Positions 6,520 to 56,501 of a stretch of 64,000 nt of DNA are shown here, piece after piece. The DNA is taken from the NCBI GenBank assembly GCA_965204055.1, contig OZ241967.1, forward strand, positions 1,801,362-1,865,361, given 5' to 3'. Source of the stretch: Bdellovibrionales bacterium. Its GTDB lineage: Bacteria > Bdellovibrionota > Bdellovibrionia > Bdellovibrionales > UBA1609. The translations under genes were made by a program, and so were the position numbers. Below the pieces are notes generated by a model. That model ran no database searches. It saw only the letters and a list, made by a program, of their open reading frames with translations, and was not told where the DNA came from. Position 1 is the stretch's first letter, and each line of letters opens with the position of its first letter.

Positions 6520-6662
6520 GTCGTCCGTGAAAAAGTGTATTTCAACACAGTAAACAGGGTTTACTTTGCCCTAAAACAGGCAAGATTCCCGCTCAAGGCG
6601 GGACTGTAAAGCCAAGTACTTGGCTTTACAGTTGGAGATGAACAGGGTTTTTCACGACTGAC
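6520..6662. mobile_element. MITE (143 bp), IS5-element-related
   Basis: TIRs gtcgtccgtgaaaaa / tttttcacgactgac; perfect 6-bp TSD taaata (6514-6519, 6663-6668); internal 28-bp palindrome 6604-6631. Confidence 0.9.
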
Positions 6663-6925
6663 TAAATAGTATTTAAAAAATACTGAGTAAAAGAGTCTTT
6701 ATCAAGGTCAATATATTTCTGAATTATATTTTTTAATTCGTTTAAATCTTCGTTTTTAGTGGGGTCACAATCACTTGATGAGCAATGCGCTTCTGTTTGG
6801 GTATTTTCCGGCTCAAAGGACTGGTTTATTTCAATAAGCCTTTTTGTAAAATAATCGCAAGCTTCTATTTTTTTAGTGCAATTTTCTTTGATAATATCAG
6901 TAGCAGTCCTTTGATACTGTATATA

Positions 6926-7045
6926 GTTGGTCGTGAAAAAGTGTATTTCAACACAGTAAACAGGGTTTACTTTGCCCTAAAACAGGCAAGATTCCCGCTC
7001 AAGGCGGGAATGACAGAAGTAGTGAAAAGGTTTATCACGTGCGAC
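6926..7045. mobile_element. MITE (120 bp), IS5-element-related
   Basis: TIRs gttggtcgtgaaaaa / tttatcacgtgcgac; TSD tatata (6920-6925, 7046-7051); ~75 bp of interior identical to the 6520 MITE; gattcccgctcaaggcgggaatgaca REP/dRS3-like hairpin. Confidence 0.9.
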
Positions 7046-7981
7046 TATATAGTCTTTACGATCAATAGGTGTGTTTTTAGAGGCATTATAACATCTTTCA
7101 GAGATGGAGTCGTTGGGGTCAATCGGTATACATTTATGATTAAATATAAAACCACACTCAAATTTATTTTCTGAACCATCACAATGATTGTCACGGGAAG
7201 GGCAAATATCTCTTTTTAGATATTCAGAGAAAACTGTCTCGTTTAGATTACCACCTATAAGACAAGGTTCTGAAAACACAACAGCAGAAAAAGCTGGTGG
7301 AATAAAAAAATTAAGGAAGTTTAACCAAGCCGTTTTTTTTTGTTGCCTTTGATTTTTTATATCTATTTCAAAGTGTAAAAAGGCTTTTTTTATTTCTTTT
7401 ATATATCTTAACCTAAGAGAGGGGGACATTATTTGATATTGTTTTTTAGGAATAAGATAAGAAGTTTTTTTTAATGGTATATTAACCCCATCCCCATTGC
7501 CTTCTTTATCTACTCGGTCGCATGTATTAAACTTATCTTTAAGCAATCTTAGTTTTTTAGGGGATACAATTTTAAGTGCAATTTTAAAAAATTCACTGGG
7601 GTTTTTTAACTTTGTAGCTGAGTAGTAGTTATAAACACAAAATATTAAAGAATGATCAACCGAAAAATCAAAAGCTTTATCATAAATTTTAACAACTTCT
7701 TGTAATATTTTTTGTCTTATGTCTCCATTGATTTTTTGTGCTGATTCTATATCTTTTAAGCCTCTCATATAAGGGCATACTTTTTGATATACTATTTGCT
7801 GATAATTATAGCCATTAATTTTTATCCTACTTGATATTAAGTCTTTAAGGTAAACTTCCATATCCTTTGTTTTTGACTCTTTACCAAAAGCAAAAGAGCA
7901 ACAAATGATTAAAAATATAAAAAATAAGGTATCGATTAATTTTTTCATATTTTTTCCGTATTTACCTCAAAGGTTAAAGTA

Positions 7982-9895
7982 TTATTGACCTCCTTTATCC
8001 CAATCTTCGCGGTTTGTTTTTGTGGTTGTAAGCTGGCGTGTAGTAGCTTGCCTTTGTCCTGCTTTAGCAAGTCGGTTAGTGTGATCGAGGCAAGCAGGGG
8101 ATTTAGGTTCTTGTGTTTCCGCGCAAATAAAAAAGTCCTGCACAGCACAAACTCGGTCCTCATGGCCTAAGTTAATAAAGTCCATATACTTAAAGGTTTG
8201 CCCTCTGTGTTTGACCGAGGCGTTTTTACATTTATTGTTTATATTTTTGTCTATTGGTGTAAAACCAAGTAGTTTTAAACACATCTTGCTTTTTTCTTTT
8301 TCCCGATCTGAGGGGTTTGTTACTGCCATCTCTTTGTCAATATAATCAAGTGTCCCCTTGGCATCTTTTAAAAATATTTTAGAAAAACTTTTCATTTTTT
8401 GGTGACTACCATCAAAGGCTTGTCTCATATCATCTTGCTTTTGCGCTACTTCTATAAAACTGGAAATATTAAATATTTCATAGACTGTATTTATTTTTTC
8501 AGCATTAAAGTTTTTAGCTATGTTTTGGGGAGTATTATCTGGGTTATTCTGAAAGTGCTTTATTGCTCTTTGGATTTGTTGTTTATTACTATAGTCTATA
8601 AACTTCTTAAAATGTGACACCTGACTTTGAGTCTCTGGATTTGTTGCGGTTAAAAGCTTAAAGCTATTCATAAAGTCTTCTTTTAATTGAGACATCTCTT
8701 CGTCTGTAGTGTCGTCATTATCATAACCTGCTTCCAGTGCTCTATAAGCTGTCTCTGCTTTTTTGATTTTTTCTTTAAATCCCTTCGCTTTTGTTCTACT
8801 AAAAGCCCTTGATCGTTCTTCTAAAAGGTCATTATCTAAATCCGATAATTGAGATAGACTTTTTAAGGCAGACTCACTTTCCTGGTTTTCATACCACCGG
8901 GTAACAAAATCTTCTGAATCCTCTGTTTCTCTTGGTGTAAAAGAATCCAACACACCTTTTAATGAGGCAACCCCACGGTCTATACCATTATTGGAACAAT
9001 CAATACAAGATTGAGCCTCTGTATCTACCTGATCTATAAGTTTTTTATTTTTTATCAATTCACAATGCCCTTGATTAAGTGAGGATAAAGCACATCCTAA
9101 ACCCATAGCCATTAAGGGTTTATCCAAACCTTTAGTGTCGTATTTTTTTCCAATAGCAAAAAGGTTTCTGGTAAGCTTAACAGCTCCAGACAACCCTAAA
9201 CCTAAAGGGGTTGAGCTTAACATAAGGCCCGTTAACCCTGTTAAACTTAATAAAGCTTGTGTTGTGGCCCCACTATCTTTTTTAAGGCATTTTGACTGAA
9301 TAGCACTTCCTAAAGCTTGGGAATATTGATCAATGTTATCAATAATAGCACTATTGGCTTTAATTTGTTGATCTGTTTTACCTGCACCAAGTATATTTCT
9401 TTGTTTAAAAACTGTTAAATCCTGTTTAATTTCCATCTGTTTAGCTTTTAATTGCATTTTTTCAGATGGAGGTAAAAGTTTATCATTTAAGCTATTTTCT
9501 ATATCTCTTAACTCTCTTTCTTTCTGTTTTAGATATCGTAAAGCACTTTTTGCGCTTACAACCTTTTGTATGGCATTTATATCAGGGATATTGTCTAAGC
9601 TATCTTTTACCGCTTTACATCGATCGCTATCTTCTATATTACTGACCATAGTTCTAAAAGCATTGATAGACTTTCTTACCTTATCGGTTTCTGAACCGCA
9701 TCCATCGCTATAGGTGTCTGCCAATATGTTACCCGCCGGTTGACTATCAAATGTTTGACTACCATCCGTTTGACTACCATCCGTTTGAGGGGAGAACGGA
9801 CTCATAGGTGGTTGCATACCCGGCATATTTCCATCCGTTTGAGCTTGAGCTATATTCATTAAACCCATAAAAAAAACACAAACAAAAATAATCAT
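7982..9895 (-). CDS. Secreted Cys-containing hypothetical protein (637 aa) with QTDGS repeats
   Basis: Long ORF, signal peptide, 15-bp tandem repeats near the N-terminus, hydrophobic Gly-rich segment LLSLTGLTGLMLSSTPLGLGLSG. Confidence 0.85.
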   Translation of the reverse strand: MIIFVCVFFMGLMNIAQAQTDGNMPGMQPPMSPFSPQTDGSQTDGSQTFDSQPAGNILADTYSDGCGSETDKVRKSINAFRTMVSNIEDSDRCKAVKDSLDNIPDINAIQKVVSAKSALRYLKQKERELRDIENSLNDKLLPPSEKMQLKAKQMEIKQDLTVFKQRNILGAGKTDQQIKANSAIIDNIDQYSQALGSAIQSKCLKKDSGATTQALLSLTGLTGLMLSSTPLGLGLSGAVKLTRNLFAIGKKYDTKGLDKPLMAMGLGCALSSLNQGHCELIKNKKLIDQVDTEAQSCIDCSNNGIDRGVASLKGVLDSFTPRETEDSEDFVTRWYENQESESALKSLSQLSDLDNDLLEERSRAFSRTKAKGFKEKIKKAETAYRALEAGYDNDDTTDEEMSQLKEDFMNSFKLLTATNPETQSQVSHFKKFIDYSNKQQIQRAIKHFQNNPDNTPQNIAKNFNAEKINTVYEIFNISSFIEVAQKQDDMRQAFDGSHQKMKSFSKIFLKDAKGTLDYIDKEMAVTNPSDREKEKSKMCLKLLGFTPIDKNINNKCKNASVKHRGQTFKYMDFINLGHEDRVCAVQDFFICAETQEPKSPACLDHTNRLAKAGQRQATTRQLTTTKTNREDWDKGGQ

Positions 9896-10431
9896 TGTTT
9901 AACACTCCTACTAACTCGGTTTATTAAAGAACGATATATTTTTTTGGTAAGGCGATCTGTATTAGCGATCAAACAGTCCCCATTTGTGGCAACCCATATA
10001 AGGCTATCTTTTGATTTCCCTTTTTGAGCTTTAGTAACATAAGATAAAAAACTTTGAGCCTTGTTTATTTTTAAGGATTTCGTAACCCCTCCCCATTCTT
10101 TAATTTTTTGACGAGCTAAGGATAGGGAAAAAGGTTCACAGTCTTTAGAAACAAATAAAGTATTGTCTACAACCGGCCCATAAAGCATTAACATAGTGCT
10201 TTCAGAAAAAACAGTGCTTAAGTCCAGCTCTTTAGAGTCAATACGAATATTCCAAGATTTTAAGGTTCTTATACGAGAAGCAGGCGGTGTTTCAATAGCA
10301 ACAATATTTTCACTAACAACTAAAACCAACAAAAATATAAAGAACCTTAGTAAAACAAATGGGTTAACCTGGCCTTTTTTTAAAAATCGAAATGACGCGG
10401 TGCGGGGGGGGGTAAAATGGGTTTTTTTCAC
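9892..10431 (-). CDS. Hypothetical exported protein with C9 tract in its 5' end
   Basis: Overlaps the next gene by 4 nt; hydrophobic segment; 5' ~70 bp nearly identical to 219-295. Confidence 0.7.
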   Translation of the reverse strand: MKKTHFTPPRTASFRFLKKGQVNPFVLLRFFIFLLVLVVSENIVAIETPPASRIRTLKSWNIRIDSKELDLSTVFSESTMLMLYGPVVDNTLFVSKDCEPFSLSLARQKIKEWGGVTKSLKINKAQSFLSYVTKAQKGKSKDSLIWVATNGDCLIANTDRLTKKIYRSLINRVSRSVKQ

Positions 10432-10549
10432 TTTTTCACTCCTTGATTTTCTTTTATTTAAAGAAATTATGGTTTTTATATATCACTTATCGGTTTGAGC
10501 AGGAGAAACTTAATAAAATTAATTAAAAAAAAGTAACAAATACTACTTA

Positions 10550-12129
10550 GTCGGTCGTGAAAAAGCAGTTAACGCATTGTTATCACTTGATTTTTTTATA
10601 AAATGTTTGGAAAATAATTGCACTAAAAGTCCTAAGTATAGGACTTTTAGTTTTCCATAAATCTCTTATTTTCTTGCAAAATAAGGAAAGGAAAAAGCAC
10701 CATGATTCCAAGGAATAATCTTCACAGCGGGCAATATAATCTGTTTAAAAAAAGAACAGACGAGGTAGCCCATAAAGATCACCCTTTGGTTATTTTATCA
10801 AGAGCCTTTGATTGGGATATGTTTGATAAGTCCTTTGGGGAGAAGTTTCACCCTGATAACGGACGCCCCGGTCTTGCTACCCGTTTAATGGTAGGTCTTC
10901 ATTACATCAAGTATGCCTATAATTTAAGCGATGAGGTTTTAATAGAGAGATTTAAAGAAAACCCCCAGTGGCAGTATTTTTGCGGTTTAGAGTATTACAC
11001 AGATACTGTGCCTTGTGATCGGAGTTCTTTAACCCGTTGGAGGCAGAGGATGGGAGAGGATAAGCTTAAGCTGTTATTGCAAGAGACGATAGAAGTAGCT
11101 AAAAGAGGGGGTTTGTTGAAGAGGGGGGAGCTCAAGACCGTTGTAGTGGATACAACCATTATGGAGAAAGCCATAGCTTTTCCAACAGACAGCCGTCTTT
11201 ACTTTAAGTCTTTGCAGTCTTTGGTTCGTTTTTGTAAGAAGTCAGGGATTAAGCTAAGACAGACTTACAAGAGGAAGTCAAAAAAGAGTTTATTTAAGCA
11301 GGCCCGATTAGCCCACTTGAGACGATTTCGTCAGGCCCAAAGGGAACAAAGGAGGTTAAAAACTTACTTAGGTCGTGTGATGAGAGATATTCAAAGGAAG
11401 TGTCCCTCTTGGAAGGATAATGTTCGTTTGCGCAAGCTATTGGAGATAAGCCAAGCGGTGTTTGAGCAAAAAAGAAGTGATCAGGATAAAGTGTATAGTG
11501 TTCATGCTCCAGAGGTGAAGTGTTATTCTAAGGGAAAAGCCCATAAGCGGTATGAGTTTGGCAGTAAAGTGAGTGTGGTTGTTTCTGCAAAGACTTGCTG
11601 GGTATTGGGAGTTAAGTCCTTTACAGAGAGTGTGCACGATGTATTAACATTAAAGCCGGCCCTTTCTGATGTGCAAAGTTTAACGGGAGTTTGTTTAAAG
11701 CGAGTGTTTGTAGATAAAGGCTATAGAGGGAAGAAGCATCATCCTGAAGGATTGGAGGTTAATGTAAGCGGTCAGAGACCATCACCCAGTCGTTATCATC
11801 GCCGTTTGGCACGTCGAAGGAACAGTGTAGAGGCAGTGATAGGTCATTTGAAGGGGGATTGTCGTATGGAGAGGAATTTTTTACATGGTGAGCTGGGTGA
11901 TGGAGTGAATGCTCTACTTTCTAGAAGTGGATACAATATAAGGAGATTGATAAGAGAAGTAAATAGGTTGCCTTCTTTTTTTGTTCTTTTTATCAAGAGG
12001 TTTTTTACTATGTTATTTTGTTTGTCGGCAAAGCCTTAAGCGGTGAGGGTCCAAGCGTAAGCGTCCCGAACAAGCTTAAGGTTTTGCAGACCACAGCTTA
12101 AACTTAAAAGAGGGTTTTTCACGTGCTAC
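10550..12129 (+). mobile_element. IS5-family insertion sequence (1580 bp)
   Basis: TIRs gtcggtcgtgaaaaa / tttttcacgtgctac flank the transposase; flanks are tactta / tacata (non-identical). Confidence 0.9.
10702..12039 (+). CDS. IS5-family DDE transposase
   Basis: GRPGLATRLMVGL, NPQWQYFCG, VVVDTT, KRYEFG, VFVDKGYRG, RRRNSVEAVIGHLK; higher GC than flanks. Confidence 0.95.
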   Translation: MIPRNNLHSGQYNLFKKRTDEVAHKDHPLVILSRAFDWDMFDKSFGEKFHPDNGRPGLATRLMVGLHYIKYAYNLSDEVLIERFKENPQWQYFCGLEYYTDTVPCDRSSLTRWRQRMGEDKLKLLLQETIEVAKRGGLLKRGELKTVVVDTTIMEKAIAFPTDSRLYFKSLQSLVRFCKKSGIKLRQTYKRKSKKSLFKQARLAHLRRFRQAQREQRRLKTYLGRVMRDIQRKCPSWKDNVRLRKLLEISQAVFEQKRSDQDKVYSVHAPEVKCYSKGKAHKRYEFGSKVSVVVSAKTCWVLGVKSFTESVHDVLTLKPALSDVQSLTGVCLKRVFVDKGYRGKKHHPEGLEVNVSGQRPSPSRYHRRLARRRNSVEAVIGHLKGDCRMERNFLHGELGDGVNALLSRSGYNIRRLIREVNRLPSFFVLFIKRFFTMLFCLSAKP

Positions 12130-12320
12130 TACATAGCTGATCAAAAAGTGTTGCAGACAATAAAAACTTTAAGACTTCAGGGTTTTTCTTATAAGAGGGT
12201 TGCGCTGGCTCTGAATGGGTCCGGGCTCTTTATCTTTCTAAAGTTCCGCCTCGTGGTGGTGGCCAGTGGTTTAAGACACAGGTTATTAGAGTATGCAAAA
12301 GGAACGGGCTATCAGGGTAG
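12130..12320 (+). pseudogene. C-terminal remnant of a serine recombinase DNA-binding region, frameshifted
   Basis: DQKVLQTIKTLRLQGFSYKRVALALN, then in a second frame from 12237 SKVPPRGGGQWFKTQVIRVCKR*; the N-terminus is absent to the left of the IS. Confidence 0.55.
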
Positions 12321-12379
12321 AGTCACCCCCTATATGCTTATGTATACACCCCCTGATCACTTGTTTTTGGGATAATAGG

Positions 12380-12589
12380 TTATGTGCAATACTTTACTAT
12401 ATCTTCAAGGGCTTTTTCATAATCAGCATCAGCTTTTTTATAACTGGCGTTAGCTTTACCATAATTAGCCATCGCTGTTTCATGATCGCTTTTTATTTTT
12501 TCGCATATTTCAGTTTTCTTATATGGAATGCCGTCATAAAAAGCAAAAGCTACAAAGGGAAATAAAAGGATTATAAAAATTGCTTTCAT
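12380..12589 (-). CDS. Small secreted protein with heptad repeats
   Basis: Signal peptide ending AFA; YGKANAS/YKKADAD/YEKALED repeats. Confidence 0.6.
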   Translation of the reverse strand: MKAIFIILLFPFVAFAFYDGIPYKKTEICEKIKSDHETAMANYGKANASYKKADADYEKALEDIVKYCT

Positions 12590-12621
12590 ATACCTTGAAT
12601 CGGCACAATCCAGCCTATACT

Positions 12622-12849
12622 TTAGGATTTTAGAGCTTGTTCGATCAAATCTTTTATCTTTTTGTTTATTTTTAATTGGTATCCTTTTTGTGATGAATGC
12701 AAGTTATTTTTGAAACAATAGTCAATCATATCGCTTATTACACTTTTTGTTATATTAGGCCGGCCTTGAATACCGAAATCAGTCGCTATATTATAGACAG
12801 CCTCCCTTATAAAATCATACTCTTGCTTTGGCCTTTGTTGTCTATTCAT
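12622..12849 (-). CDS. Hypothetical protein
   Basis: 75-aa ORF co-oriented with its neighbours, RBS-like aaggggg. Confidence 0.55.
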   Translation of the reverse strand: MNRQQRPKQEYDFIREAVYNIATDFGIQGRPNITKSVISDMIDYCFKNNLHSSQKGYQLKINKKIKDLIEQALKS

Positions 12850-12869
12850 AAATCCCCCTTTACCAAATA

Positions 12870-13277
12870 TTATTTCTTTACCCGCTTTATTTTTTTATCT
12901 TTGGATAAGGGAGATTGCCTATTGTGTTTTTGTTTTTCTAATCCCATCATATCCATTTGAGAGGCATAAACAAAATTCTCCATTAGTGCAATACGATCAC
13001 TATTTACTTGGTCTACTTTTGTGCGCATAATCTCAAAGTAAGTAAAGAAACCCACAACAAAAATCGTGCCAACCGCAAGAACCCACTTCCCTAATATATC
13101 CAATCGTTTGTTTATTATATCAGCGGTTTTGGAATCTATCTTTGAGAGATATAAGTCAAACTTATTGCTCATACTTTCCTGGAATAGCTGAAATTCATGT
13201 TTCATTTCCTGTTTAAATAACATAAAATCAGCTTGTGTGACTGAATCTTTTTTTGAGTCTGACATTTCTCGCCTCAC
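12870..13277 (-). CDS. Coiled-coil + TM protein (DUF1640/Bdr-like)
   Basis: VTQADF..FKQEMKHEF followed by TM WVLAVGTIFVVGFFTYF; resembles 44943-45329. Confidence 0.65.
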   Translation of the reverse strand: MRREMSDSKKDSVTQADFMLFKQEMKHEFQLFQESMSNKFDLYLSKIDSKTADIINKRLDILGKWVLAVGTIFVVGFFTYFEIMRTKVDQVNSDRIALMENFVYASQMDMMGLEKQKHNRQSPLSKDKKIKRVKK

Positions 13278-13535
13278 TTTTTTATATTTTTTTTAATATA
13301 CCACACACAACACCGCAATTTTTACAATCCATTACATGGGCTGTCAATGATTTTACCGCAAATAACTGATATTGAGAATCATCATCATATAAACCTTACT
13401 TTTTTTCAGGATAAGCAATTTTTTCTATAAAAATTTTAAAATCCTTATATTTTATTTTTACTTCCTTTTCTATATCAAACCCGTGCGGTGCGCGGTCTTT
13501 TAATCTTTTATCAGTCTCTTTTAGAGGTATTTATC

Positions 13536-13685
13536 TTATAAAAGATATAATTGTAAGTTTACAATGGCTCTTAGCTCTTTCTGTATTCCATTCAATACTT
13601 TTGTTTGGCTTTTTTGTTGGACGGCGTCTGCAAGGTTTCTTAGCTCTTTCTGTAGCCCAATCAATGCTCTCGTTTGGGTATCCAT
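13536..13685 (-). CDS. 49-aa small protein with internal duplication (xLxGxQKELR x2)
   Basis: Translated by hand: MDTQTRALIGLQKELRNLADAVQQKSQTKVLNGIQKELRAIVNLQLYLL; ggag RBS; below the track cut-off. Confidence 0.5.
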   Translation of the reverse strand: MDTQTRALIGLQKELRNLADAVQQKSQTKVLNGIQKELRAIVNLQLYLL

Positions 13686-14097
13686 TTTATGTCTCCGATT
13701 TTTTTATTCTTTAAGATTTTTGTTTATACTGGGTATGGGGCTGACTATATTCCGCTTCAGTAACAGGTAAGAGCCATAAAACCATTGTAAACAGGCTTAT
13801 CGGACAGCCTGAACAAGACTTTAGGGAAATATTAAAAAATATCAGAAAAACTTGGAAAATATGAGATATTAAAATTAAAAAGTGGACTTTTTGGCTTTTG
13901 TGCCTATAAACAGAGACGGCCTTAAATAGCCAAAAGCCAGTAGCATACCAAAAGGGGTATAAAATGAGACTTCCCATCCTTCACCAAAATTTTCAACACG
14001 GCGCAACTCTTCAACACCATTCTTATACCCCCATTTAGAGGAATCCATCTAAAACACTTCTTGCCCTTAAAGAGTTTAATTTGATATAAACAAGAAC

Positions 14098-14499: not shown

Positions 14500-14531
14500 A
14501 GCTTTTACCTTTTTATCTTGCAGGAAGGGGC

Positions 14532-16050: not shown

Positions 16051-16065
16051 ATAATCTCCTAATTA

Positions 16066-16229
16066 ATCCTCCGTGATAAAGTCTATTTGTCTCCAAACTG
16101 CAAAACCAAGTACTTGGCTTTGCAGTCCTTGGAAAACGGGTATCCAGAACCTAAACTAAAGGCCTAAAAGGCTTTCAGCCTTTTTCAAGTGAGAATCCAG
16201 TCAAAAAAACAATCTTTTTCACGGAGGAT
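16066..16229. mobile_element. MITE (164 bp) inside the mlaE-mlaF operon
   Basis: TIRs atcctccgtgataaa / tttttcacggaggat; perfect TSD taatta (16060-16065, 16230-16235); carries the 28-bp palindrome module (16098-16125) inverted relative to the 6520 MITE. Confidence 0.9.
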
Positions 16230-16304
16230 TAATTAGTCCATCCTGAATAAGTCAGTTTAGTTAAATCAAACGCCTGGTACAATAACTTTTTCCCGGACCA
16301 CTAA

Positions 16305-18954: not shown

Positions 18955-19052
18955 AATAGACTATATCTAACAGTTTTTTCTGAAAAATATTTAAAAAATA
19001 TATTTTTACTATTGATTACCACAACAAATATCCGATATATGTTAGTGTATCT

Positions 19053-19933: not shown

Positions 19934-19945
19934 GTAGGGAAAATC

Positions 19946-38491: not shown

Positions 38492-38713
38492 AAAATTATT
38501 AAGAAAAGGCTCAATCCCTAAAATTTACTTTTTTATTGGATGAGAATAAACTAAAATGGAATCACCTGCGGAACATTGCTACAACAAAGCAAATAAAATT
38601 TACTTTGCTTTAAAACAGGTGTGGATACCTACTACCCGCCTGCGCGGGACTGAAAAGTAAGTAGATGGGCTTTTCAGTTTCCCTTTTTCAGGGAATGACA
38701 ATTTTTTTGTGCT

Positions 38714-44940: not shown

Positions 44941-44942
44941 GG

Positions 44943-45527: not shown

Positions 45528-45615
45528 TTCGGTCGTGAAAAAGTAGCAGTTAACGCATTATTATAACTTGATTTTTTTATAAGTTAAAATTAAAAAATAC
45601 TTTGTCACAGGCAAC
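45528..45615. mobile_element. Degenerate MITE derived from the IS left end
   Basis: ~55 bp matching 10550-10600 (cggtcgtgaaaaag..gcagttaacgcatt..acttgatttttttataa); degenerate right TIR tttgtcacaggcaac; no clean TSD. Confidence 0.7.
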
Positions 45616-45647
45616 TACTATAGTCGTCTCTGAAGAAGGAAACTAAT

Positions 45648-47037
45648 ATGAATAAAAAATCACTTTTCTTTGGCGCGATTTTTATATCATACGGCCTTTT
45701 AAGTCTTTTTTATGTTTTTCTATCTGGATGTGATTATGACGCCCCCCCCCCATTTTCCAAAAAAGTCCACACCTAAAGAAACCAAGGTTAAAAAAGACAT
45801 CCAGTTTTGCGATAAAGCCAGTGAAGAAAACTCTTGCAAAAAAAACTCTTCTTGCAAAAAAGATTGCGACAAAATTTTTTCTGAAAAAGAAAATGAAGAA
45901 AAATGCCAAGCCCTCCCAACAAACACAGTTAAAGCCTTTAAAACCTTAACTCAGCAAACAAAAGATAAGGACGAAATTCAAGAAATAGCTCCTAAAACCT
46001 TGGGTTGTTTTTTGCAAATTGATCCAGAAGAGTTTGCCGATTTAATAAAAACGGCCAGTCGCCAAACCACAAAGAATTTTTTAGTAGCTATAGCAGAAAG
46101 TAAAGCCTTGGCAGAGGCTTTAGAAAACAAGGACAGTGATTTTGATGTGTTGGAAGAGCTTTTTGAAAAAGCCGTGGGGGGCAAGAATCTGCATCGTGTA
46201 TTAACCCGGTCTATAGAGGATGGGAAAACTTTTTTACAAATAGCTGAGGAGGAAGAAAGCAATCAACCTGCCTTTTACTATTTGGATAACTATGTGGATT
46301 TAAGGTGCGAAGATGAGGATAATTTTTGCGGAGATAAGGAGGAGTCTTTAACGGCTTATTGTAAGGCTTTGGTTCGTTTAAGTGATAATAATTTAGAGGA
46401 TTTTTTAGATAATGCAAAGCACTTTGAGGAGGAATATTCAGGAGAAGTAAAAGACGCGGGATTTGATTATGATGAAGAGGGTTTTCGGGATTTTTGTTCT
46501 GATGATGATAGGGGGAGTAGTTCCGGCAGTGGTTCGTCTTCCGGCACGGGATCTACCCCTACTCCTGTTACCCCATGCCCTAACAGTAATCCTCCATCAG
46601 AACAAAAGCTGGCGGAAATTACTTTTTATCACCATGCCGATCAACCCAGTCTTCAGAGATATGAATATCGTCCCGCTCGTTTTTTTATTGATACCAATGT
46701 TCTAGGAGGCTCTGATATTAGGGGTAGTAGCACTCCCTCTACCATTAATGTTCTTCCAGGCATTTTAACCAGGACAGATAGGCCTCAATGGACACAAGTT
46801 TGGTTAAAAATAAGTGCAATACCAGGTTTTGATTTTAGTAACAATACCTGGTATATTTATATTGCAGGCACACGTTACACCTTAACTAGATCCAGTCCCT
46901 CATACACAGGAGGTGGCGACACATATCAAAAATTTTCCACATCCAATAACATAGTAATCTCAGACACCAACTCGAAAGTGATTCATCTTGCCTATCAACC
47001 ATCTGGTGGTTCTTGTGTGTATATCACACAACCATAA
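45648..47037 (+). CDS. Cys-rich acidic lipoprotein, frameshifted at a C10 tract (462 aa if C9)
   Basis: ATG 45648 with aagga RBS gives signal peptide + LSGC lipobox and stops at 45776; the long frame (track 45712-47037) joins if tract 45742-45751 is C9 or C12. Confidence 0.8.
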
Positions 47038-47055
47038 AATATATATTTATAGTTT

Positions 47056-47204: not shown

Positions 47205-47288
47205 AAAATATAAAGAATACTCTTGACTATGAATAATTATAAAGAAAATATTAATCTTCAGTAGCTATATAGTAATTAGTGATAAAGT

Positions 47289-49166: not shown

Positions 49167-49197
49167 TACATTAAACCTTTGATACAACACAATAAAT

Positions 49198-49480
49198 CTT
49201 CTCAAAATTACCTCTTTTTGAGAAGATACGACAATACATGTAACAAAAACAAGCATTCTTGAGAAAATGAAAAATATCTGCTTCTCAAAATTACCTTTTT
49301 TTGAGAAGATACGGGAATACATGTAACAAAAACAAACATTTTTGAGAAGATAAAAAAGTATTTACTTCTCAAAATTACGCTTTTCTGAGAAGATAAGACA
49401 TTATATGTAACAAAAACAAACATTTTTGAGAAGATAAAACAACATATACAACAAAAACAAACATTTTTGAGAAGATAAAA
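49198..49480 (+). repeat. 83/84-bp tandem array (3 units + partial) of hairpin-containing repeats directly upstream of the Fic gene
   Basis: cttctcaaaa-N8-ttttgagaag at 49198, 49281 and 49365; tgtaacaaaaacaaacatttttgagaagata sub-unit repeated up to the ATG. Confidence 0.92.
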
Positions 49481-50530
49481 ATGAAAAACCCTATAAAACA
49501 GCCAAAAGTAGAAGAGTTAGAAAGCGTTAGAGTACTAAAGGCTCTTTCTGAGGCACACCGCTTCTTGGCTGAACTAAAAGGAATTGCCCATAGCATTCCT
49601 AACGAAAACATTTTGCTTTCCAATTTAAGACTTCAGGAAGCAAAAGAAAGCTCTGCTATTGAAAACATCATCACCACCCAAGACAGTATGTATAAACACC
49701 AAATAAACCTTGATTCACATAATACAGCTAATAAAGAAATTTACAAATATGCAAAAGCAATGGACGAGGGTTGTAAAAAAATTAAATCTGAAAAGGGCCT
49801 TTCTTTAAATACCATTCTTAAAGTTCAAAGAATTATTAAAAGTAATCGTCCGGGGTTTCGAAAACTTCCGGGGACTGTATTAAAAAATAACATCACACAA
49901 AATATTGTTTATACCCCTCCCTCTCCTGAAAAAATTCCAAAGCTTATGAATCGGCTGGAGAATTTTATTAATAAAAATTCCATAGATCCTCTTATAAAAA
50001 TGGCCATTGTTCATCATTGGTTTGAGAGCATTCACCCTTTTTATGATGGCAACGGCAGGACAGGCCGTATTATCAATATCCTTTACTTGATTTGTAAAGA
50101 GCTTTTAGACAGTCCTATTTTATATCTTAGTCGCTATATCAACAGATACAAATCCGATTATTACAAATTACTTCAGCAGGTGAGAGAGCAAGAGGTTTGG
50201 GAAGATTGGATTATTTATATGTTACAAGCGGTTTCTGTTACCTCTCAGGAAACAACTAAGTTAATTAAAAAAATAGATAAGTTGCTTACTGAATACAAAC
50301 ATATTATTCGTGAAAAGCATAAGTTTTATTCCCACGATTTGATAAATAATATCTTTTCTCATCCCTATACTAAAATAAAGTTCTTAGAAAAAGATATGAA
50401 AGTTTCCAGAGCTACTGCTACTCGTTACCTGGATGCACTAACAGAAGATAAAATTTTGAAAAAAAATAAATTAGGAAAAGAAAGTTATTATGTTAACACA
50501 AAACTTTTTGAATTGCTAAAAAGCTCTTAA
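49481..50530 (+). CDS. Fic-domain protein, class II (SoFIC/SO_4266-like)
   Basis: HPFYDGNGRTGR; N-terminal inhibitory SSAIEN; LAELKG...PNENIL; C-terminal HTH VSRATATRYL. Confidence 0.92.
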   Translation: MKNPIKQPKVEELESVRVLKALSEAHRFLAELKGIAHSIPNENILLSNLRLQEAKESSAIENIITTQDSMYKHQINLDSHNTANKEIYKYAKAMDEGCKKIKSEKGLSLNTILKVQRIIKSNRPGFRKLPGTVLKNNITQNIVYTPPSPEKIPKLMNRLENFINKNSIDPLIKMAIVHHWFESIHPFYDGNGRTGRIINILYLICKELLDSPILYLSRYINRYKSDYYKLLQQVREQEVWEDWIIYMLQAVSVTSQETTKLIKKIDKLLTEYKHIIREKHKFYSHDLINNIFSHPYTKIKFLEKDMKVSRATATRYLDALTEDKILKKNKLGKESYYVNTKLFELLKSS

Positions 50531-50581
50531 TACTTGATAATTTCCGGTAAGAATTTCGCCATTTTACAACCTAAAGCCTAA

Positions 50582-50738
50582 AGGTTTTTTTGCAAGAGCC
50601 ACCAACCTATGGATCCACCCTGCCTTCTTTGAAAAACACCCCATGTCTTAGGGTTTTTGTAAGAACCACCAACCTATGGATCCACCCTGCCTTCTTTGAA
50701 AAACATCCCATGTCTTAGGGTTTTTGTAAGAACCACCA
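50582..50738. repeat. 67-bp-period tandem duplication including the epimerase gene 3' end
   Basis: accaacctatggatccaccctgccttctttgaaaaaca at 50601 and 50668; ggtttttgtaagaaccacca three times. Confidence 0.9.
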
Positions 50739-51692
50739 GTTTATAGATTCTTGAATAGCCTTTTCGGCTGGTGCCGGTTGAAAGCCCAGCTCTTGCTTGG
50801 CTTTAGAATGATCAAACCAATGGTAAAGCCGGGCCATATACGCACTCTCTTTACTGACAGGAAAATTAAATCCTATTTTTTGCAAACCTGCACCAGTTAC
50901 TCCTAAAGTCCTAAGTAAAAAATTATTTAAAGGAATAAAGGGAGGTTTGACTCCAGCGGTTTTTGCTATAAGAGAAAAAAGTTTTTTTATAGTAATGTTA
51001 TCTCCACTTAAAATATATCTCTCTCCATTACGACCCTTTTCCACGGCCTTAAGGCAGGCCAAAACCACAGACTGCACATCCACCACACTCACCCCTCCTG
51101 AAGTGTAAAAAGGAAATCGCCCCTCTGCCACCCGCGCTTGTATTTTACGGCTTTGTTTTTTCATATCTCCCGCTCCATAAATAGTAGAAGGATTAAGTAT
51201 CACAGCGGATATCTCTCCTTTTTTTGAGGCTTTTTGCACCAATATTTCACCTGCCCGCTTAGTATGAAAATACCCCATTTTAGAAAGAGCTGGATTATAA
51301 GGGGATTCTTCGTTTAAAACCTGTGGTTTGTCACTTGCTCCCACAGCCACAACCGAGCTAATATGAACCAGCTTTGCCCCTTTAACACGACACACCTTAA
51401 TCGCATGGGCTGTCCCCTTTACATTTACTTCCTGCATAGCTGTTAAGTCTTTTTCCCGATGAGACACTAACCCCGATAGATGAAAAACTAAGTCCATGCC
51501 CTGGCCTGCTTTCGAAAAAGAATCCAGATCCGTCACATCTCCTATATGAAAATGCAAACCCATATCTTGAAGAGAGCTTTTATCACTAATGGGCCTAAGA
51601 AGGGCGTGAACTTCTAAGCCTTCTTCACACAAAGCTTTGCAAAGCCAGCCACCTAAAAAGCCACTGGCTCCTGTTACTAATGCTTTCATCAT
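50715..51692 (-). CDS. NAD-dependent epimerase/dehydratase (HpnA/DFR-like SDR)
   Basis: VTGASGFLG, HISSV, YFHTK, NPSTIYG. Confidence 0.9.
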   Translation of the reverse strand: MMKALVTGASGFLGGWLCKALCEEGLEVHALLRPISDKSSLQDMGLHFHIGDVTDLDSFSKAGQGMDLVFHLSGLVSHREKDLTAMQEVNVKGTAHAIKVCRVKGAKLVHISSVVAVGASDKPQVLNEESPYNPALSKMGYFHTKRAGEILVQKASKKGEISAVILNPSTIYGAGDMKKQSRKIQARVAEGRFPFYTSGGVSVVDVQSVVLACLKAVEKGRNGERYILSGDNITIKKLFSLIAKTAGVKPPFIPLNNFLLRTLGVTGAGLQKIGFNFPVSKESAYMARLYHWFDHSKAKQELGFQPAPAEKAIQESINWWFLQKP

Positions 51693-51734
51693 CTCTTTTT
51701 ATCACATTTCCTGATTTTTAAAAGAATATTCGCT

Positions 51735-51992
51735 TTACCTGTATACTTCTTTTCTATGCCCTATTTTAATCACGAAAACCGTAATGGTTTTCTTTTTAAC
51801 AGAATAGATTATTCGATAATCCCCTATTCTTAGTTTCATCAACCCTTTTAAGTTTCTCCTCAATGGTGTTCCATATTTAACAGGATCAGGAATCAGTTTT
51901 TCTTCAATAGCTCTTTTTATAAGATTACGCATTTTTTTAGGGATATTGTTCAGATCTTTTTGAATGGATTTTTTATAGACGATCTTCCACAT
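51735..51992 (-). CDS. relE: RelE/ParE-family toxin
   Basis: MWKIVY...KLRIGDYRIIY...IGHRKEVY; TAATG coupling to the antitoxin. Confidence 0.9.
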   Translation of the reverse strand: MWKIVYKKSIQKDLNNIPKKMRNLIKRAIEEKLIPDPVKYGTPLRRNLKGLMKLRIGDYRIIYSVKKKTITVFVIKIGHRKEVYR

Positions 51993-52216
51993 TATTTTGC
52001 AGACCATGTTTTTTTATGTGAAATAACAGGTTCTTTTGCTCTTTCTTCGGCAATTTTAGAAAAATATAAATCTTCCTGCAATTCCAAGGCAAACCTGGTA
52101 AGGTCAATCACTATTGCAGATAAAGAAGAGGCTTTTTTAATTTGTTTTAGTTCCCTTAACTGGCTGTAAAGCTTAGGGTCTACTGTAAGATTGATCCTTT
52201 TATGAGTGGTTGGCAT
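51992..52216 (-). CDS. RHH-type antitoxin of the RelE pair
   Basis: RINLTV..LY..L RHH pattern, ALELQEDLY; upstream of and coupled to the toxin. Confidence 0.8.
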   Translation of the reverse strand: MPTTHKRINLTVDPKLYSQLRELKQIKKASSLSAIVIDLTRFALELQEDLYFSKIAEERAKEPVISHKKTWSAK

Positions 52217-52290
52217 ATTGCCCTCCCTTTTCCAATTTTAAAACCACTGTAAGATTGATCCTTTTATGAGTGGTTGGCATATTGCCCTCC
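52182..52290. repeat. 45-bp perfect duplication of the antitoxin start + RBS (period 64)
   Basis: actgtaagattgatccttttatgagtggttggcatattgccctcc at 52182 and 52246. Confidence 0.92.
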
Positions 52291-52376
52291 TTCTTCCTCT
52301 AAAAATTATGTTACTTTAGTGTAACACCTTAAAACCTCCTGTCAAGCTACTTTTTTAAAGGATATTAGAACATCAT

Positions 52377-52408
52377 AAAAAAAGAAGGCAAAAATGGCCT
52401 TCTTTTTT
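52377..52408. terminator. Bidirectional intrinsic terminator
   Basis: aaaaaaagaaggc-N7-gccttctttttt. Confidence 0.75.
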
Positions 52409-52445
52409 AAAAACTTTAATAATAAACGGGGTGTTAAAAAAAATT

Positions 52446-53273
52446 TTACCGCCTGCATTTTTCCCTAAGTTCGCGTGCTCTTGCCAGCCTTTTAGAGGTT
52501 GTGTCATACCCTCTGCTTGCAAAAGCGTTGGTTAGGGCAACATGCACACCCGCACCACTTTTTATACCTTCATTAGTTTTTCGCGCTAAATCCAAAAACT
52601 CTCCACGAGAACTCGCAGGCCATGTTACAATATCATGTATATGTTGTGCTAAATCCAATACAATATTTGAACTTTCTGGAGCATTTTCACTTTCTGTAAC
52701 CCGTTCTGCGATTCTTTTTGTATTAGCCACAAACTCTAACATTACTGCAACATCTTCTGAACGAACATCTTTTTCATTGTTCGCTATCTTATCAGCCAAT
52801 CTTTTTAAGGAAAGTGCGGTGTTGGGCTTCTTCTGAGAGGTTATAACCTCCATAAGATCCGCTTTTTTATTTGCCACTACTGCTCCTGCCTTGCTCTCTA
52901 AAACCCCTATAATGGCTTGAGCATTCACCTTACTAATAGAAGGCTGGGTTGTAACTTGCAATAAGTTAAGTCCACCACTTTCAGCTGAACCTGATTGTGC
53001 TTTCAGCTGTTGTTCCCTTCTGGCACTTTCGATCCTTAGAGTTTCTACATATACTTCCTGTAAGTTTCGCGGGTTACTAAAAAATCCAGAATTCCGGTTA
53101 TGGATAGCATCTATCGCTTGTTGCAAGCGCGCTGTTTCCGTTGGTGTTAATTTTTCAGCCCCTTTTACTTCGCGTGCAATGGGCTTAGTAGTACTTCTTG
53201 CCTCACTCAGCGAGCTGACCATAAACAAACCAGACAAAATACCTATGGATAATAAAGTTTTCATAATTAACAC
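52446..53273 (-). CDS. Secreted helical hypothetical protein
   Basis: Signal peptide ending SEA; aggag RBS. Confidence 0.8.
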   Translation of the reverse strand: MLIMKTLLSIGILSGLFMVSSLSEARSTTKPIAREVKGAEKLTPTETARLQQAIDAIHNRNSGFFSNPRNLQEVYVETLRIESARREQQLKAQSGSAESGGLNLLQVTTQPSISKVNAQAIIGVLESKAGAVVANKKADLMEVITSQKKPNTALSLKRLADKIANNEKDVRSEDVAVMLEFVANTKRIAERVTESENAPESSNIVLDLAQHIHDIVTWPASSRGEFLDLARKTNEGIKSGAGVHVALTNAFASRGYDTTSKRLARARELREKCRR

Positions 53274-53446
53274 TCCTTTTTTCTATAAAATTATTTATTT
53301 TTTACAAATCTATACCGAAACAAAAAATAAAAAAAGTTTTTTTTCAAATAAACTAATATTTATTTTTCCAGCGTGAAAATTTTTCACCATTCTGTTTAAA
53401 AAACGCTTTTTTGTTCACATTGGATATCTAAAAATTACAATTTTTT

Positions 53447-54652
53447 TCATTTAAGCACAACCTCTTTTGGCAAATTCTGGGCATTATATTGGCTGGCCAT
53501 TACCACACCATAAGCCCCTGTATCTAAAACCACCATAAAATCCCCTTCTTTTAAATTAGAAAAAACCCGATCTTTTCCTAATACATCCGATGACTCACAA
53601 ATAGGCCCTACCACATCATAAATTTGCTTGGAAATTTGTCCGGAACTGGAAAAATGGCGGTTTAGAGGCAAAATCTGATGATATGCCTGATAAAGGCAAG
53701 GGCGGATAAGATGATGCGTCCCTGTATTTAAAATCACAAAATTTTTATAAGCATTGCTTTTTATATACTGTATTTCTCCGATCAAACATCCAAATCGCGC
53801 GGTGATAACCCTGCCCGGTTCTGTTAAAATTTGAGCTTTAAGGTTTTTAGAAAGCTCTGTTAAAAATAACCCATACTCTTTTACAAGCTCTAAATCCTTA
53901 GACCAATCCTGACTTTTATAATCAATACCTAATCCTCCCCCTACATCAAAAGTTTGCAAATCAAACTCTGAGCGCAATTCTTCATAAAGAGACTTAATTT
54001 TAAGGATACCTGTTTTTAAAGCCGTAAGATCTTGAATTTGAGAACCTATATGCAAGGTCAAACCGTATAATGATAGATGAGAAGAATGTTGTTTTAAAAT
54101 CTCCTTCAACTTCGGAATCTGCTCCGATTCCAGACCAAACTTATGCTGGCTTAACCCGGTTTTAATATAAGGATGGGTATCTACATCCATATCGGGGTTC
54201 ATTCGGAAAGCCACTCTGGCTTTTTTGTTCATATTAGCAGATATTTTGGCGATTCTTTTTAACTCACTTACACTTTCTACATTAAATTGTAAAATATCTG
54301 TTTTAAGGGCCAGCTTTATTTCTTCCTCGGTTTTTCCCACTCCAGAAAAAACAATGTCTCTCCCTTGGAATCCTGCTTTTAAGGCCAAGTTAATTTCCCC
54401 CCCAGAAACCACATCCACCCCTACTTTTTCTTTCTGAAAAGCTTTTAATATCTCTATGTTTGAGTTAGCCTTCATGGCGTAATGGACATGAGCGGGAGCA
54501 ATGCTTTGCTTAAAAAACTTTAATCTTTCTAACAAGCCTCTAAGATTATAAACATAAAGAGGTGAGCCGGATTTTCGTACTAAAGAAAGCAGATTATACT
54601 TTTTTTTACCCTGAATGATTTGCAATTCTTCTTTATAATATTCATAAGCCAT
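53447..54652 (-). CDS. lysA: Diaminopimelate decarboxylase
   Basis: HYAMKANSN, DVVSGGE, HIGSQ, DVGGG, EPGR, GPICESSD; downstream of aspartate kinase. Confidence 0.93.
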   Translation of the reverse strand: MAYEYYKEELQIIQGKKKYNLLSLVRKSGSPLYVYNLRGLLERLKFFKQSIAPAHVHYAMKANSNIEILKAFQKEKVGVDVVSGGEINLALKAGFQGRDIVFSGVGKTEEEIKLALKTDILQFNVESVSELKRIAKISANMNKKARVAFRMNPDMDVDTHPYIKTGLSQHKFGLESEQIPKLKEILKQHSSHLSLYGLTLHIGSQIQDLTALKTGILKIKSLYEELRSEFDLQTFDVGGGLGIDYKSQDWSKDLELVKEYGLFLTELSKNLKAQILTEPGRVITARFGCLIGEIQYIKSNAYKNFVILNTGTHHLIRPCLYQAYHQILPLNRHFSSSGQISKQIYDVVGPICESSDVLGKDRVFSNLKEGDFMVVLDTGAYGVVMASQYNAQNLPKEVVLK

Positions 54653-54707
54653 AACAATACCTTATAAAAACAAATCCCCTCTTAGTAAGTGCAGGACTAA
54701 AAAAAAC

Positions 54708-54810
54708 TGTTTATCTTTTTTTAACTCAAGCCCTTGCATTTGTAATATATTTACACTTGACTTTCTATTAGCTTGTTTATCTTTTTTTAGCTCAAGCCCC
54801 TGTATTTGTA
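54708..54810. repeat. 37-bp imperfect duplication of the lysC 3' end (period 66)
   Basis: tgtttatctttttttaactcaagcccttgcatttgta vs tgtttatctttttttagctcaagcccctgtatttgta. Confidence 0.85.
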
Positions 54811-56018
54811 TGGGCACTTTCTAAGTTAAACTCCTTATGCACTGCCCTGGCAGAAGACAACAGGTGTTTTTTATCAATAATAGCACTAATTTTTATTTCC
54901 GAAGTAGTCACTAAATGAATATCCAGCCCGATACTGTTTAAGGCTTTAAAAAAGCGACCAGCCACACCCGGATGATGAGCCATCCCCACCCCTACAATAG
55001 AGAGCTTTGCCAGACCTTCAATAACACTTACTTTTTTAGGATCTATCATTTTATAGACAATTTTTTTGGTTTCTAGCAAATCTTCTTTGTTAATAGAAAA
55101 AGCCAGCCTCTGCCCCTCCTTATTATAGCTTTGAGATATTATATCTACAGAAATATGTTGCTCGGCCAACACATTAAATAAATCGGTTATAAACTGAGAA
55201 CCTGATGGCACGGGATACATCTTAATAATAACTGTCCCCATATCGTGTGTGACGGCGGACACAAGTGGTTTTTCCATAAATTCCTCCTTTGGCAAGATCC
55301 ATGTCCCTTCTGTTTCCTGATAGGCAGATCGAACATGAAGCCTGATTTTATATTTTGCCGCTATTTCCACAGAACGACAATGCAAAACCCGGCTCCCTAA
55401 AGAGGACATTTCCATCATTTCTTCAAAACTAAGTTTCGAAATTCTGGCAGGATTTTCTATTAAACGGGGATCCGCTGTATACACCTTTGGCACATCTGTA
55501 AAAATCTCACAGTCCGGTTGTTTAAAAGCTACTGCTAAGGCTACAGCCGTGGTGTCGCTCCCCCCTCTTCCTAAAGTGGTGATGGTGCTTCCATTAGTTA
55601 CCCCCTGAAAACCCGCTACTAAAGGAACATAACCCGCGTTTAAATATTTTTCAATAGACTCTGTCTGAATTTCCTGAATGCGAGCACGGGAAAAAAGGGC
55701 ATCGGTTTGAATGCCCACCTGATGGGCCAGCAAAGGCATAGCTTTAACTTTTCTTTTTTCCAAAGCCAAGGCTAAAAGAGCCACACTCACCTGTTCACCA
55801 GTAGCAAGCAACATATCATAAGCTGGCCCTTTATAAGAAGGCCCTATTTGCTTTGCCAGGCCAATGAGCCGATTGGTTTCACCAGACATAGCAGACACCA
55901 CCACTAAAGGTTTTTGACCTTGGTGCTTGTCTTTCATAATTCTTTCGGCCACTTGTTCCAGTTTTTCTATAGAACCAACGGAAGTGCCACCAAATTTTTT
56001 AATATGTATTCGTTTCAT
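54792..56018 (-). CDS. lysC: Aspartate kinase
   Basis: KFGGTSV, LGRGGSDTTA, TDVPKVYTADPR, ACT domains TTSEIKIS. Confidence 0.95.
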   Translation of the reverse strand: MKRIHIKKFGGTSVGSIEKLEQVAERIMKDKHQGQKPLVVVSAMSGETNRLIGLAKQIGPSYKGPAYDMLLATGEQVSVALLALALEKRKVKAMPLLAHQVGIQTDALFSRARIQEIQTESIEKYLNAGYVPLVAGFQGVTNGSTITTLGRGGSDTTAVALAVAFKQPDCEIFTDVPKVYTADPRLIENPARISKLSFEEMMEMSSLGSRVLHCRSVEIAAKYKIRLHVRSAYQETEGTWILPKEEFMEKPLVSAVTHDMGTVIIKMYPVPSGSQFITDLFNVLAEQHISVDIISQSYNKEGQRLAFSINKEDLLETKKIVYKMIDPKKVSVIEGLAKLSIVGVGMAHHPGVAGRFFKALNSIGLDIHLVTTSEIKISAIIDKKHLLSSARAVHKEFNLESAHTNTGA

Positions 56019-56405
56019 TTTGCTGGTTTTTTAAGCAACTTTTGTGATTTTTAAGTGTGGTTTATATCCAAGAGCAGAAAGCACCCTCAACATTAAATCT
56101 GTAGATACACAAAAGTGGAAATCCAGTCAAGAAAAAGACCTTTTCAAGCCCGACTAAATAAGTTTTAACAAAATCTTAACATACTGTCCAGTTTTTAAAC
56201 AACTATAAACGAGTTAATCACTTTAAAAAAGTTCCTGTAAAAGTCGTATTTAATTGCCGTATTTGACTTAACTAAACATACTTTTTCACAGACCACTATT
56301 TAAACTTTAAACAAGTGTGAAATCTTTTCATTCCACCAAAAAAATTATTTTTTATTAAGCAGAAATTCATTATAGTAATGGCCTGCGAAACGAATAAATA
56401 ATTGA

Positions 56406-56501
56406 GTAGGATGTGAAAAAGCCTACAACTTGGCTTTGCAGTTTAGTCAAGAAGTAACAAAGGTTTTTTCAGTTAAGGAAAAGTATTTATTCACGGATGA
56501 A
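56406..56501. mobile_element. Possible decayed MITE just upstream of the giant gene
   Basis: gtaggatgtgaaaaa and ttattcacggatgaa resemble family TIRs; contains the half-palindrome acttggctttgcag; no clean TSD. Confidence 0.4.

Follow-up and report, generated by a model that had tools for sequence, protein, structure and literature searches.

Introduction

[quoted passage not shown] In the IS5, IS427, IS1031 and ISL2 groups of the IS5 family, the target duplication is 2–4 bp in length. Mosaic intergenic repeats with modules arranged around a conserved palindrome are represented by the bacterial interspersed mosaic elements (BIMEs) of E. coli and the BOX elements of pneumococci. Here we describe a population of MITEs in a 64,000-nucleotide stretch (the window) of a Bdellovibrionales bacterium, which corresponds to bases 1801362–1865361 of a single-contig genome of 2.31 Mb with 36.4% G+C. 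These MITEs share their ends with a resident IS5-family element, termed IS-A, and many of them contain a central hairpin of the repetitive extragenic palindrome (REP) type.

One class of REPs, CGTC-1, is defined by an unpaired CGTC or TGTC tag on one side, a stem of 8 bp with AT as its first bases, a loop of 4 nt (5 nt in other CGTC families) and CCA as its tail; CGTC-1 has been equated with dRS3 of Neisseria and RPE-6 of Rickettsia, and has no dedicated transposase (Di Nocera et al. 2013, PMC3733652). The dRS3 repeat has the format ATTCCC-N8-GGGAAT. Arrays of dRS3 flank RS segments in the Neisseria intergenic mosaic elements (NIMEs), which are without transposon ends and for which recombination at dRS3 has been proposed as the origin of the mosaic (PMC1797815).

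The best overall explanation of the repeats analysed here, to which we assign a probability of about 0.8, is that they are MITEs driven by IS-A, the arms of which have been exchanged at a shared REP hairpin. The repeats are a well-supported new MITE family (superfamily) of the ordinary kind, and no new mechanism is needed to account for them.

Complete elements and their target duplications

Three complete MITEs are present in the window. Their arms are named according to whether they carry the left (IRL) or the right (IRR) type of inverted repeat. The first MITE, a 143-bp copy of family F0 at 6520..6662 (+ strand), is inserted in a gene, is flanked by TAAATA at 6514–6519 and 6663–6668, and consists of IRL-arm A, REP hairpin H (6587–6603), a 28-bp palindrome P (6604–6631) and an IRR end. 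The second, a 120-bp copy of family F1 at 6926..7045 (+ strand), is flanked by TATATA at 6920–6925 and 7046–7051, consists of IRL-arm A, REP hairpin H (6991–7011) and a short IRR-arm Y', and is located in the same host gene as the first. The third, a 164-bp copy of family F3 at 16066..16229 (− strand), is flanked by TAATTA at 16060–16065 and 16230–16235, and consists of IRR-arm X with palindrome P (16098–16125), a degenerate REP and IRL-arm S. All three were listed as MITEs in the initial annotation of the window, and each of them is indeed complete and has a perfect 6-bp TSD. The palindrome was described there as occurring in both orientations. Because the 28-bp palindrome is perfect, this description holds only for the arm that flanks it.

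The host gene of the first two MITEs, which belong to different families, encodes a member of a secreted-protein family and is split by them into three open pieces (5787..7948, − strand). When both MITEs are removed in silico, each together with one 6-bp duplicate, an uninterrupted open reading frame (ORF) of 629 amino acid residues is obtained. Full-length orthologues of this 629-aa protein are encoded by two of the same-genus genomes used for comparison (1.3–2.3 Mb in size), and an intact paralogue at genome 316322–318319 is 53% identical to it over residues 1–626. The three gene pieces contain no further stop codons, indicating that both insertions are recent.

The motif CGTGAAAAA occurs 7 times in the window, as compared with 0.86 expected, and 196 times in the genome. 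When the genome is scanned with GTNNNNCGTGAWAAA, with one mismatch at most and with opposite ends paired at 60–400 bp, 121 terminal inverted repeat (TIR) pairs are detected, the lengths of which show a sharp peak at 120–165 bp. BLAST with all 121 elements as queries extends the population to 328 loci, which occupy 40.9 kb, or 1.8% of the genome. Four main families are distinguished by clustering, F0 (143 bp, 39 copies), F1 (120 bp, 24 copies), F2 (141 bp, 16 copies) and F3 (164 bp, 10 copies and longer variants), together with many singletons and long variants. The F0 copies are 92–98% identical to one another. Diverged versions of F0 are present in three same-genus genomes, indicating that this MITE family is older than the species. 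The z-scores of single-strand folding relative to shuffled sequences are −6.6 for an F0 copy and −4.2 for an F1 copy, with one hairpin per module.

The duplications that flank the TIR pairs are perfect over 6 bp in 63 of the 121 pairs and over 7 bp in 7 pairs; 25 pairs show one mismatch and 26 show at least two. Random re-pairing of the left and right flanks of the pairs gives ~12 perfect 6-bp matches on average and 22 at maximum. The left and right flanks are 76–84% identical at exactly six positions and ~25–45% identical beyond these positions. The target logo, C-TA-W-W-TA-G, is palindromic, and its AT-richness is far beyond the base composition. Orthologous empty sites are unusable, because the intergenic DNA of the same-genus genomes is too diverged (MITE matches are 70–80% identical), and paralogous sites and protein comparison were used instead. 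Paralogous empty sites contain one copy of TATTTA, TATATA or TAGTCA. One such case is the MITE at genome 1251346, which lies between two copies of TATTTA; its target is uninterrupted at two paralogous sites, which read TTTTTTCCTATTTATACAAACAGG. The initial annotation had credited the MITEs with 6-bp TAnnTA duplications and had named a genome-wide scan of TIR pairs as the check; the number of perfect duplications, which is far above that obtained at random, and the single 6-mer of the empty sites agree with this claim. The elements are thus short, non-coding and multicopy, and have inverted ends matching a resident IS, an IS-like TSD and single-copy empty sites. They are very probably IS5-type MITEs with a 6-bp duplication typical of their clade.

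The central hairpin and the arms

Perfect hairpins that conform to AT-(T/A)CCCGC-loop-GCGGG(A/T)-AT, with a loop of 4–5 nt, number 68 in the genome, whereas none is found when the reversed genome is searched with the identical motif. Only two stems are represented, ATTCCCGC (45 copies) and ATACCCGC (23 copies), both of which are 8 bp in length and start with AT. A TGTC or CGTC tag is located on one side of 64 of the 68 hairpins. In 31 of the 68, the hairpin is followed by CCAG, and other copies continue with CTCG or palindrome P. The hairpins are mostly single within a MITE. In all, 56 hairpins (82%) are MITE-borne, 42 of them inside the 121 pairs and 14 with arm-like flanks, and the remaining 12 are solo copies. 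The tag, the 8-bp stem starting with AT, the 4–5 nt loop, the ATTCCC-N8-GGGAAT format and, in part of the copies, a CCA-type tail are shared with dRS3 and RPE-6, and the central hairpin of the MITEs is, as judged from its sequence, a CGTC-1 REP, the known class that includes Neisseria dRS3. Most copies in this genome are located inside IS5-type MITEs and not in free dimers or arrays; in the CGTC-1 class, head-to-head dimers predominate. The host lineage, which is labelled Bdellovibrionales, is also outside the five phyla listed for CGTC repeats in PMC3733652.

Of 100 other genera that were sampled from the whole phylum, 11 contain the strict hairpin motif, in the form of the REP unit GG-ATTCCCGC-N4-GCGGGAAT-GACA (71 copies at most). 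Their genomes are mostly small and include G036, G067, G035, G089 and G104 (loci L033–L052), and the other sampled members of the same family or order are not among these 11 genera. One of the genomes, G036, which is distant within the phylum, contains free REP arrays with related hairpins (GTCATCCCCGTGAAAACGGGGATCC) and the same GG...GACA flanks. An IS110/Piv-type domain, a candidate for the agent of the hairpin as for Neisseria dRS3, has no match in the genome. A REP-associated tyrosine transposase (RAYT) or an IS200-type transposase was likewise considered as the agent and rejected, because the six IS200-like copies of the genome have end hairpins, CCCCGTGGC-TTG-CCACGGGG, that are unrelated to H or P. 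These results are consistent with the lack of a dedicated transposase for CGTC-1 REPs.

Like NIMEs, the MITEs contain short modules recombined around a conserved palindrome. They are not NIMEs, however, because most hairpins are single and lie between IS-type ends with a TSD. In the MITEs, a single REP has an end recognised by the transposase on either side, and a target duplication surrounds the complete unit. The only NIME-like arrangement seen here is an array with a 66-bp period at genome 1640912–1640997 (hairpins at 1640912 and 1640978), in which the REP alternates with a conserved spacer.

The 87 elements with a recognisable central hairpin were divided into halves, and each arm was read from the end inwards. 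All 87 consist of one IRL-type arm and one IRR-type arm. The arm types are A, S, Z, c6 and others on the IRL side, and X, which holds the 28-bp palindrome, Y, Y' and others on the IRR side. The combinations are A-X (32 elements), S-Y (16), A-Y' (14), A-Y (8), Y-c6 (3), S-X (2) and X-Z (1). Beyond these two S-X elements, families F3 (10 copies) and F6 (3 copies) are of the X/S type with a degenerate hairpin. A Y arm that is ~92% identical is joined to the unrelated arms A2 and S. Arm Z corresponds to arm S without an internal palindrome, which is flanked by two ATCCAG repeats. At genome 1214731–1215069 and 1705688–1705950, a 25-bp half-palindrome (CTGCAAAGCCAAGTTGTTTGGCCAA or similar) is tandemly amplified 5–8 times and forms a minisatellite inside a MITE. 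These expansions have a parallel in the internal minisatellite of the BrickBuilt MITE of Porphyromonas gingivalis (PMC4596501). The interiors are therefore built from re-used modules, including the dRS3/REP-like hairpin and the 28-bp palindrome, as the initial annotation had supposed. Unlike bacterial MITEs in general, the families share their ends and central hairpin and differ from one another by whole arms in mixed combinations.

It had also been supposed that the ends capture and shuffle other small repeats. The shuffling is evident from the mixed arm combinations, whereas repeated capture is at variance with the presence of one hairpin joint and of near-identical arms with unrelated partners. 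According to a model of de novo capture, the IS ends repeatedly land beside pre-existing small repeats, such as REPs and palindromes, and each event gives rise to a new MITE family. This model can account for the 12 solo hairpins of this genome, for the free REP arrays of the distant genome of the phylum, and for mini-elements derived from IS ends, as found at 45528 in the window and at genome 1533199–1533367 (two IS right ends). The existence of free hairpin copies indicates that the hairpin entered a MITE at least once. Independent captures, however, would vary the junctions and the subterminal sequence, whereas the arm-hairpin junctions are identical across families, the same arms are found at ~90% identity with different partners, and the elements strictly combine an IRL-arm with an IRR-arm. 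Repeated capture is therefore unlikely. Because of the strict IRL + IRR build, the identical junctions and the shared arms, recombination between MITEs at the shared hairpin fits the data better, and is on balance the probable source of the arm combinations.

The duplicated target of a resident MITE is frequently used as an insertion site by another MITE. In eight tandem pairs of complete elements, a single 6-mer and nothing else lies between the two members, and it is equal to the duplications on the outside; 33 of 242 ends adjoin a further end via a shared 6-mer, as compared with ~2% predicted from the proportion of TAnnTA sites next to MITEs. Among the five tandem pairs that could be classified, three (genome 296560/296687, 657938/658088 and 1457128/1457275) are arranged head-to-tail and consist of elements of different families. 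Such an arrangement would provide one route for arm exchange, namely deletion between the two hairpins of head-to-tail MITEs that share a target duplication. For example, this deletion in the S-Y/A-X pair at genome 1457128/1457275 would give an S-X element.

The resident insertion sequences

IS-A is an autonomous IS of 1580 bp at 10550..12129 (+ strand), with IRL GTCGGTCGTGAAAAAGCAG and IRR (reverse complement) GTAGCACGTGAAAAACCCTC. Its transposase gene at 10702..12039 (+ strand) encodes a DDE-type protein of 445 aa with DUF772 and DDE_Tnp_1 domains. The genome contains three full copies of IS-A and several fragments. Two of the copies encode a full-length transposase with the catalytic residues, and the TSD of the copy at genome 380540, TATTTA, is perfect. 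In the IRL-type arms of the MITEs (CGTGAAAAAG), positions 12 and 16 are occupied by A and G, respectively, in 55 of 57 and 19 of 19 copies, as in the IRL of IS-A, and in the IRR-type arms (CGTGATAAACCC) T is found at position 12 and CCC at positions 16–18, as in the IRR of two IS-A copies. The MITE ends are thus common to a resident IS5-family element, in agreement with the initial annotation. The similarity between the MITEs and the IS is confined to the outer ~16–22 nt, indicating, again as proposed, that the MITE interiors are not simple deletions of the IS. We infer that the MITEs are moved in trans by the IS-A transposase.

A second IS, IS-B, encodes a transposase that is 45% identical to that of IS-A, and has GTCGGCCCTGAATAAA ends and perfect TAAGTA duplications. 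Two further possibilities are that the elements are relics without mobility, or that IS-B and not IS-A mobilises them. Many copies are degenerate, as seen from the 328 MITE-like loci against 121 clean pairs and from the 26 pairs with two or more TSD mismatches. IS-B is present in two intact, identical copies with perfect TSDs, and a few decayed elements have CCTGAA-type ends. Immobility is nevertheless difficult to reconcile with the high identity of the F0 copies, the 70 perfect TSDs and the lack of additional stops in the doubly split 629-aa gene. As for IS-B, its CCTGAATAAA-type ends are absent from the abundant MITE families, which end with CGTGA like IS-A and not with CCTGA like IS-B, and two IS-A copies retain a full-length transposase with its catalytic residues. 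Both possibilities are therefore improbable, and mobilization by IS-A is preferred.

The IS-A clade and its target sites

The IS-A transposase matches the NCBIfam model NF033578 ('IS5 family transposase') with 468 bits, well over its cut-off of 275, across profile positions 2–418 of 419, and also matches PF05598 and PF01609 of Pfam (DUF772 and DDE_Tnp_1). In an alignment of eight sequences, IS-A and seven relatives including ISRm12, IS1478 and ISXca5, residues D150, D338, E377 and K384 are invariant. Among publicly available sequences, those most closely related to IS-A are from metagenome-assembled genomes (MAGs) labelled 'Bdellovibrionales bacterium'. When annotated plasmids are searched by tblastn, relatives of the transposase are detected in 476 records, some of which are annotated as belonging to the ISRm12, ISRsp18, IS1478 and ISXca5 families.

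The ends and flanking 6-mers of the relatives were read directly. ISRm12 has the end GTCGGCGCTGAAAAA and is flanked by TATTTA on both sides, ISXca5 has the end GTCGCCCCTGAAAAA and is flanked by CCATTA on both sides, a Paracoccus copy has the end GTCCGATCTGAACAA between two TAAATA, and a Mycetohabitans copy has the end GTCCGTCCTGAACAA between two CAAGTA. IS1478, with the end GTCGCCCCTGAAAAA, is flanked by TAGCTA and TAATTA, which conform to TAnnTA on both sides, and a Leptospira copy, with the end GTCGTCCCTGAAAAA, is flanked by TACATA and TATTTA. No end pair was detected by a simple end-pattern scan in ISRsp18, one Bradyrhizobium copy and two Bdellovibrionales MAG loci, and these were not used.

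ISs of the NF033578 type, which include ISRm12, IS1478, ISXca5, ISRsp18 and unnamed copies of Leptospira, Paracoccus and Mycetohabitans, resemble IS-A in having a 420–450-aa transposase with DUF772 and DDE_Tnp_1, an element length of ~1.5 kb, the invariant D, D, E and K, ends of the form GTC-N3-C(C/G)TGAAMAA, and a 6-bp duplication, usually TAnnTA. IS-A differs from these ISs in that the amino-acid identity is only 38–47%, in its CGTGA ends instead of CCTGA, and in the large MITE population that has arisen in its genome. The model score, the domains, the DDE residues with K, the ends and the 6-bp duplication all place IS-A in the NF033578-type (ISRm12/IS1478-like) clade of the IS5 family. Because ISRm12, ISXca5, the Paracoccus and Mycetohabitans relatives and IS-B have both ends of this form and perfect 6-bp TSDs, such ends, together with a duplication of 6 bp that is mostly TAnnTA, are ancestral to the whole clade. 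The length of the TSD had been regarded in the initial annotation as unusual for IS5, and this view is not tenable for the clade to which IS-A is assigned. Relatives with these ends and a 6-bp TSD had been named there as grounds for refutation, and on this point ISRm12 and ISXca5 do refute it. Our literature search found no publication, within the set of papers covered, that gives a 6-bp duplication for the ISRm12/IS1478-type clade. Membership of IS-A in the IS5 subgroups with 2–4-bp duplications was considered and rejected, because exactly six positions are duplicated and matches at k = 4 or 5 are at the background level.

Seven MITEs are flanked by perfect 7-bp duplications of the form TAnnnTA (examples are at genome 103795, 225380, 934312, 1381263, 1651742, 1760476 and 2208423). 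This result suggests that a TA step fixes each of the two strand-transfer sites and that the distance between them may vary by one base. The possibility that the true duplication is only 2 bp, with the inner TA being part of the element and the outer TA a target preference, fits the TAnnTA empty sites as well as the 6-bp model does and suits the slightly better conservation of the element-proximal TA (95%) than of the distal TA (80–88%), but is excluded for practical purposes, because GAATTA and TAATTC in this genome (GAATTA/GAATTA and TAATTC/TAATTC) and CCATTA and CAAGTA in the relatives are duplicated entirely, as are the 7-bp TAnnnTA sites.

Other features of the window and the genome

The sequence at 45528..45640 (+ strand), which had been taken for a MITE, is a left-end remnant of IS-A. 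It is ~90% identical to IS positions 2–55, has decayed ends and flanks without a matching TSD, and is present in a single copy, outside any multicopy MITE family. A cluster of MITE debris is located at 56117..56501, 5' of a 1614-aa ORF. It contains solo right ends at 56117–56160 (followed by TAAATA) and 56266–56296 (followed by TATTTA) and an element at 56406–56501. The latter had been listed as a possible MITE, and an element is present at this site, but it is degenerate and not complete. The two solo right ends had not been listed, and neither had a decayed arm-A/REP/palindrome copy with degenerate ends at ~38559..38700.

A run of nine G residues is located at 10404–10412, just 5' of IS-A, and a run of 11–12 C residues at 45741–45752, near the start of the ORF at 45712–47037. 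These homopolymer tracts could be sites of phase variation or of assembly errors. The IS200/IS605-type element (~0.7 kb, with a Y1 transposase of 151 aa) is present in six identical copies, at genome 500343–500705, 769170–769532, 888096–888458, 1045257–1045619, 1508936–1509298 and 1757429–1757791, which look recently active.

Discussion

According to the mechanism that we propose, a MITE retains an IRL-type end of ~16 nt (GTNNNNCGTGAAAAAG) and an IRR-type end of ~20 nt (GTNNNNCGTGATAAACCC). The transposase would join both ends at a stagger of 6 nt, occasionally 7 nt, in the palindromic, AT-rich target C-TA-N2(3)-TA-G, and repair would lead to duplication of these 6 (or 7) bases. The length of the duplication and the target are probably inherited traits of the whole IS clade. 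In the interior, the CGTC-1 REP (T/C)GTC-AT(T/A)CCCGC-N4/5-GCGGG(A/T)AT-CC would link an IRL-arm to an IRR-arm, and new families would arise mainly when different MITEs exchange arms at the shared hairpin. Further hairpin modules, namely palindrome P and another palindrome that is located in arm S, would be optional and may be gained, lost or tandemly amplified.

Several observations weigh against this explanation. The flanks of the window copy of IS-A, TACTTA (10544–10549) and TACATA (12130–12135), match at only five of six positions, and the copy at genome 461430 has no TSD. A recognisable hairpin is missing from 34 of the 121 TIR pairs, or about one quarter. Variants of the stem and loop are linked to the IRL arm, so that the exchange point would be at the IRR-side base of the hairpin. 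Only a few bases of homology are available at this point, and ordinary homologous recombination does not appear to be clearly sufficient. Similar patterns could result from template switching, which at the hairpin has the same plausibility as recombination of the RecA type, or from gain and loss of the palindrome in independent events.

The MITEs split genes and create false N-termini, and they need to be masked before this uncultured lineage is interpreted at the gene level. Their insertion sites also provide a statistically strong target logo (C-TA-N2/3-TA-G, with a stagger of 6 or 7 nt) for a widespread and little-described IS5 clade. A REP of the dRS3 class that is carried almost entirely in MITEs, and at which MITE halves reassort, bears on how CGTC REPs are propagated. 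We tentatively suggest that CGTC-type REPs of this lineage may spread inside IS5-mobilised MITEs and serve as a hub at which MITE halves are reassorted. If so, one hairpin would both hitch-hike on a MITE population and diversify it, and this would give a concrete answer to the question of how REPs without a transposase are disseminated.

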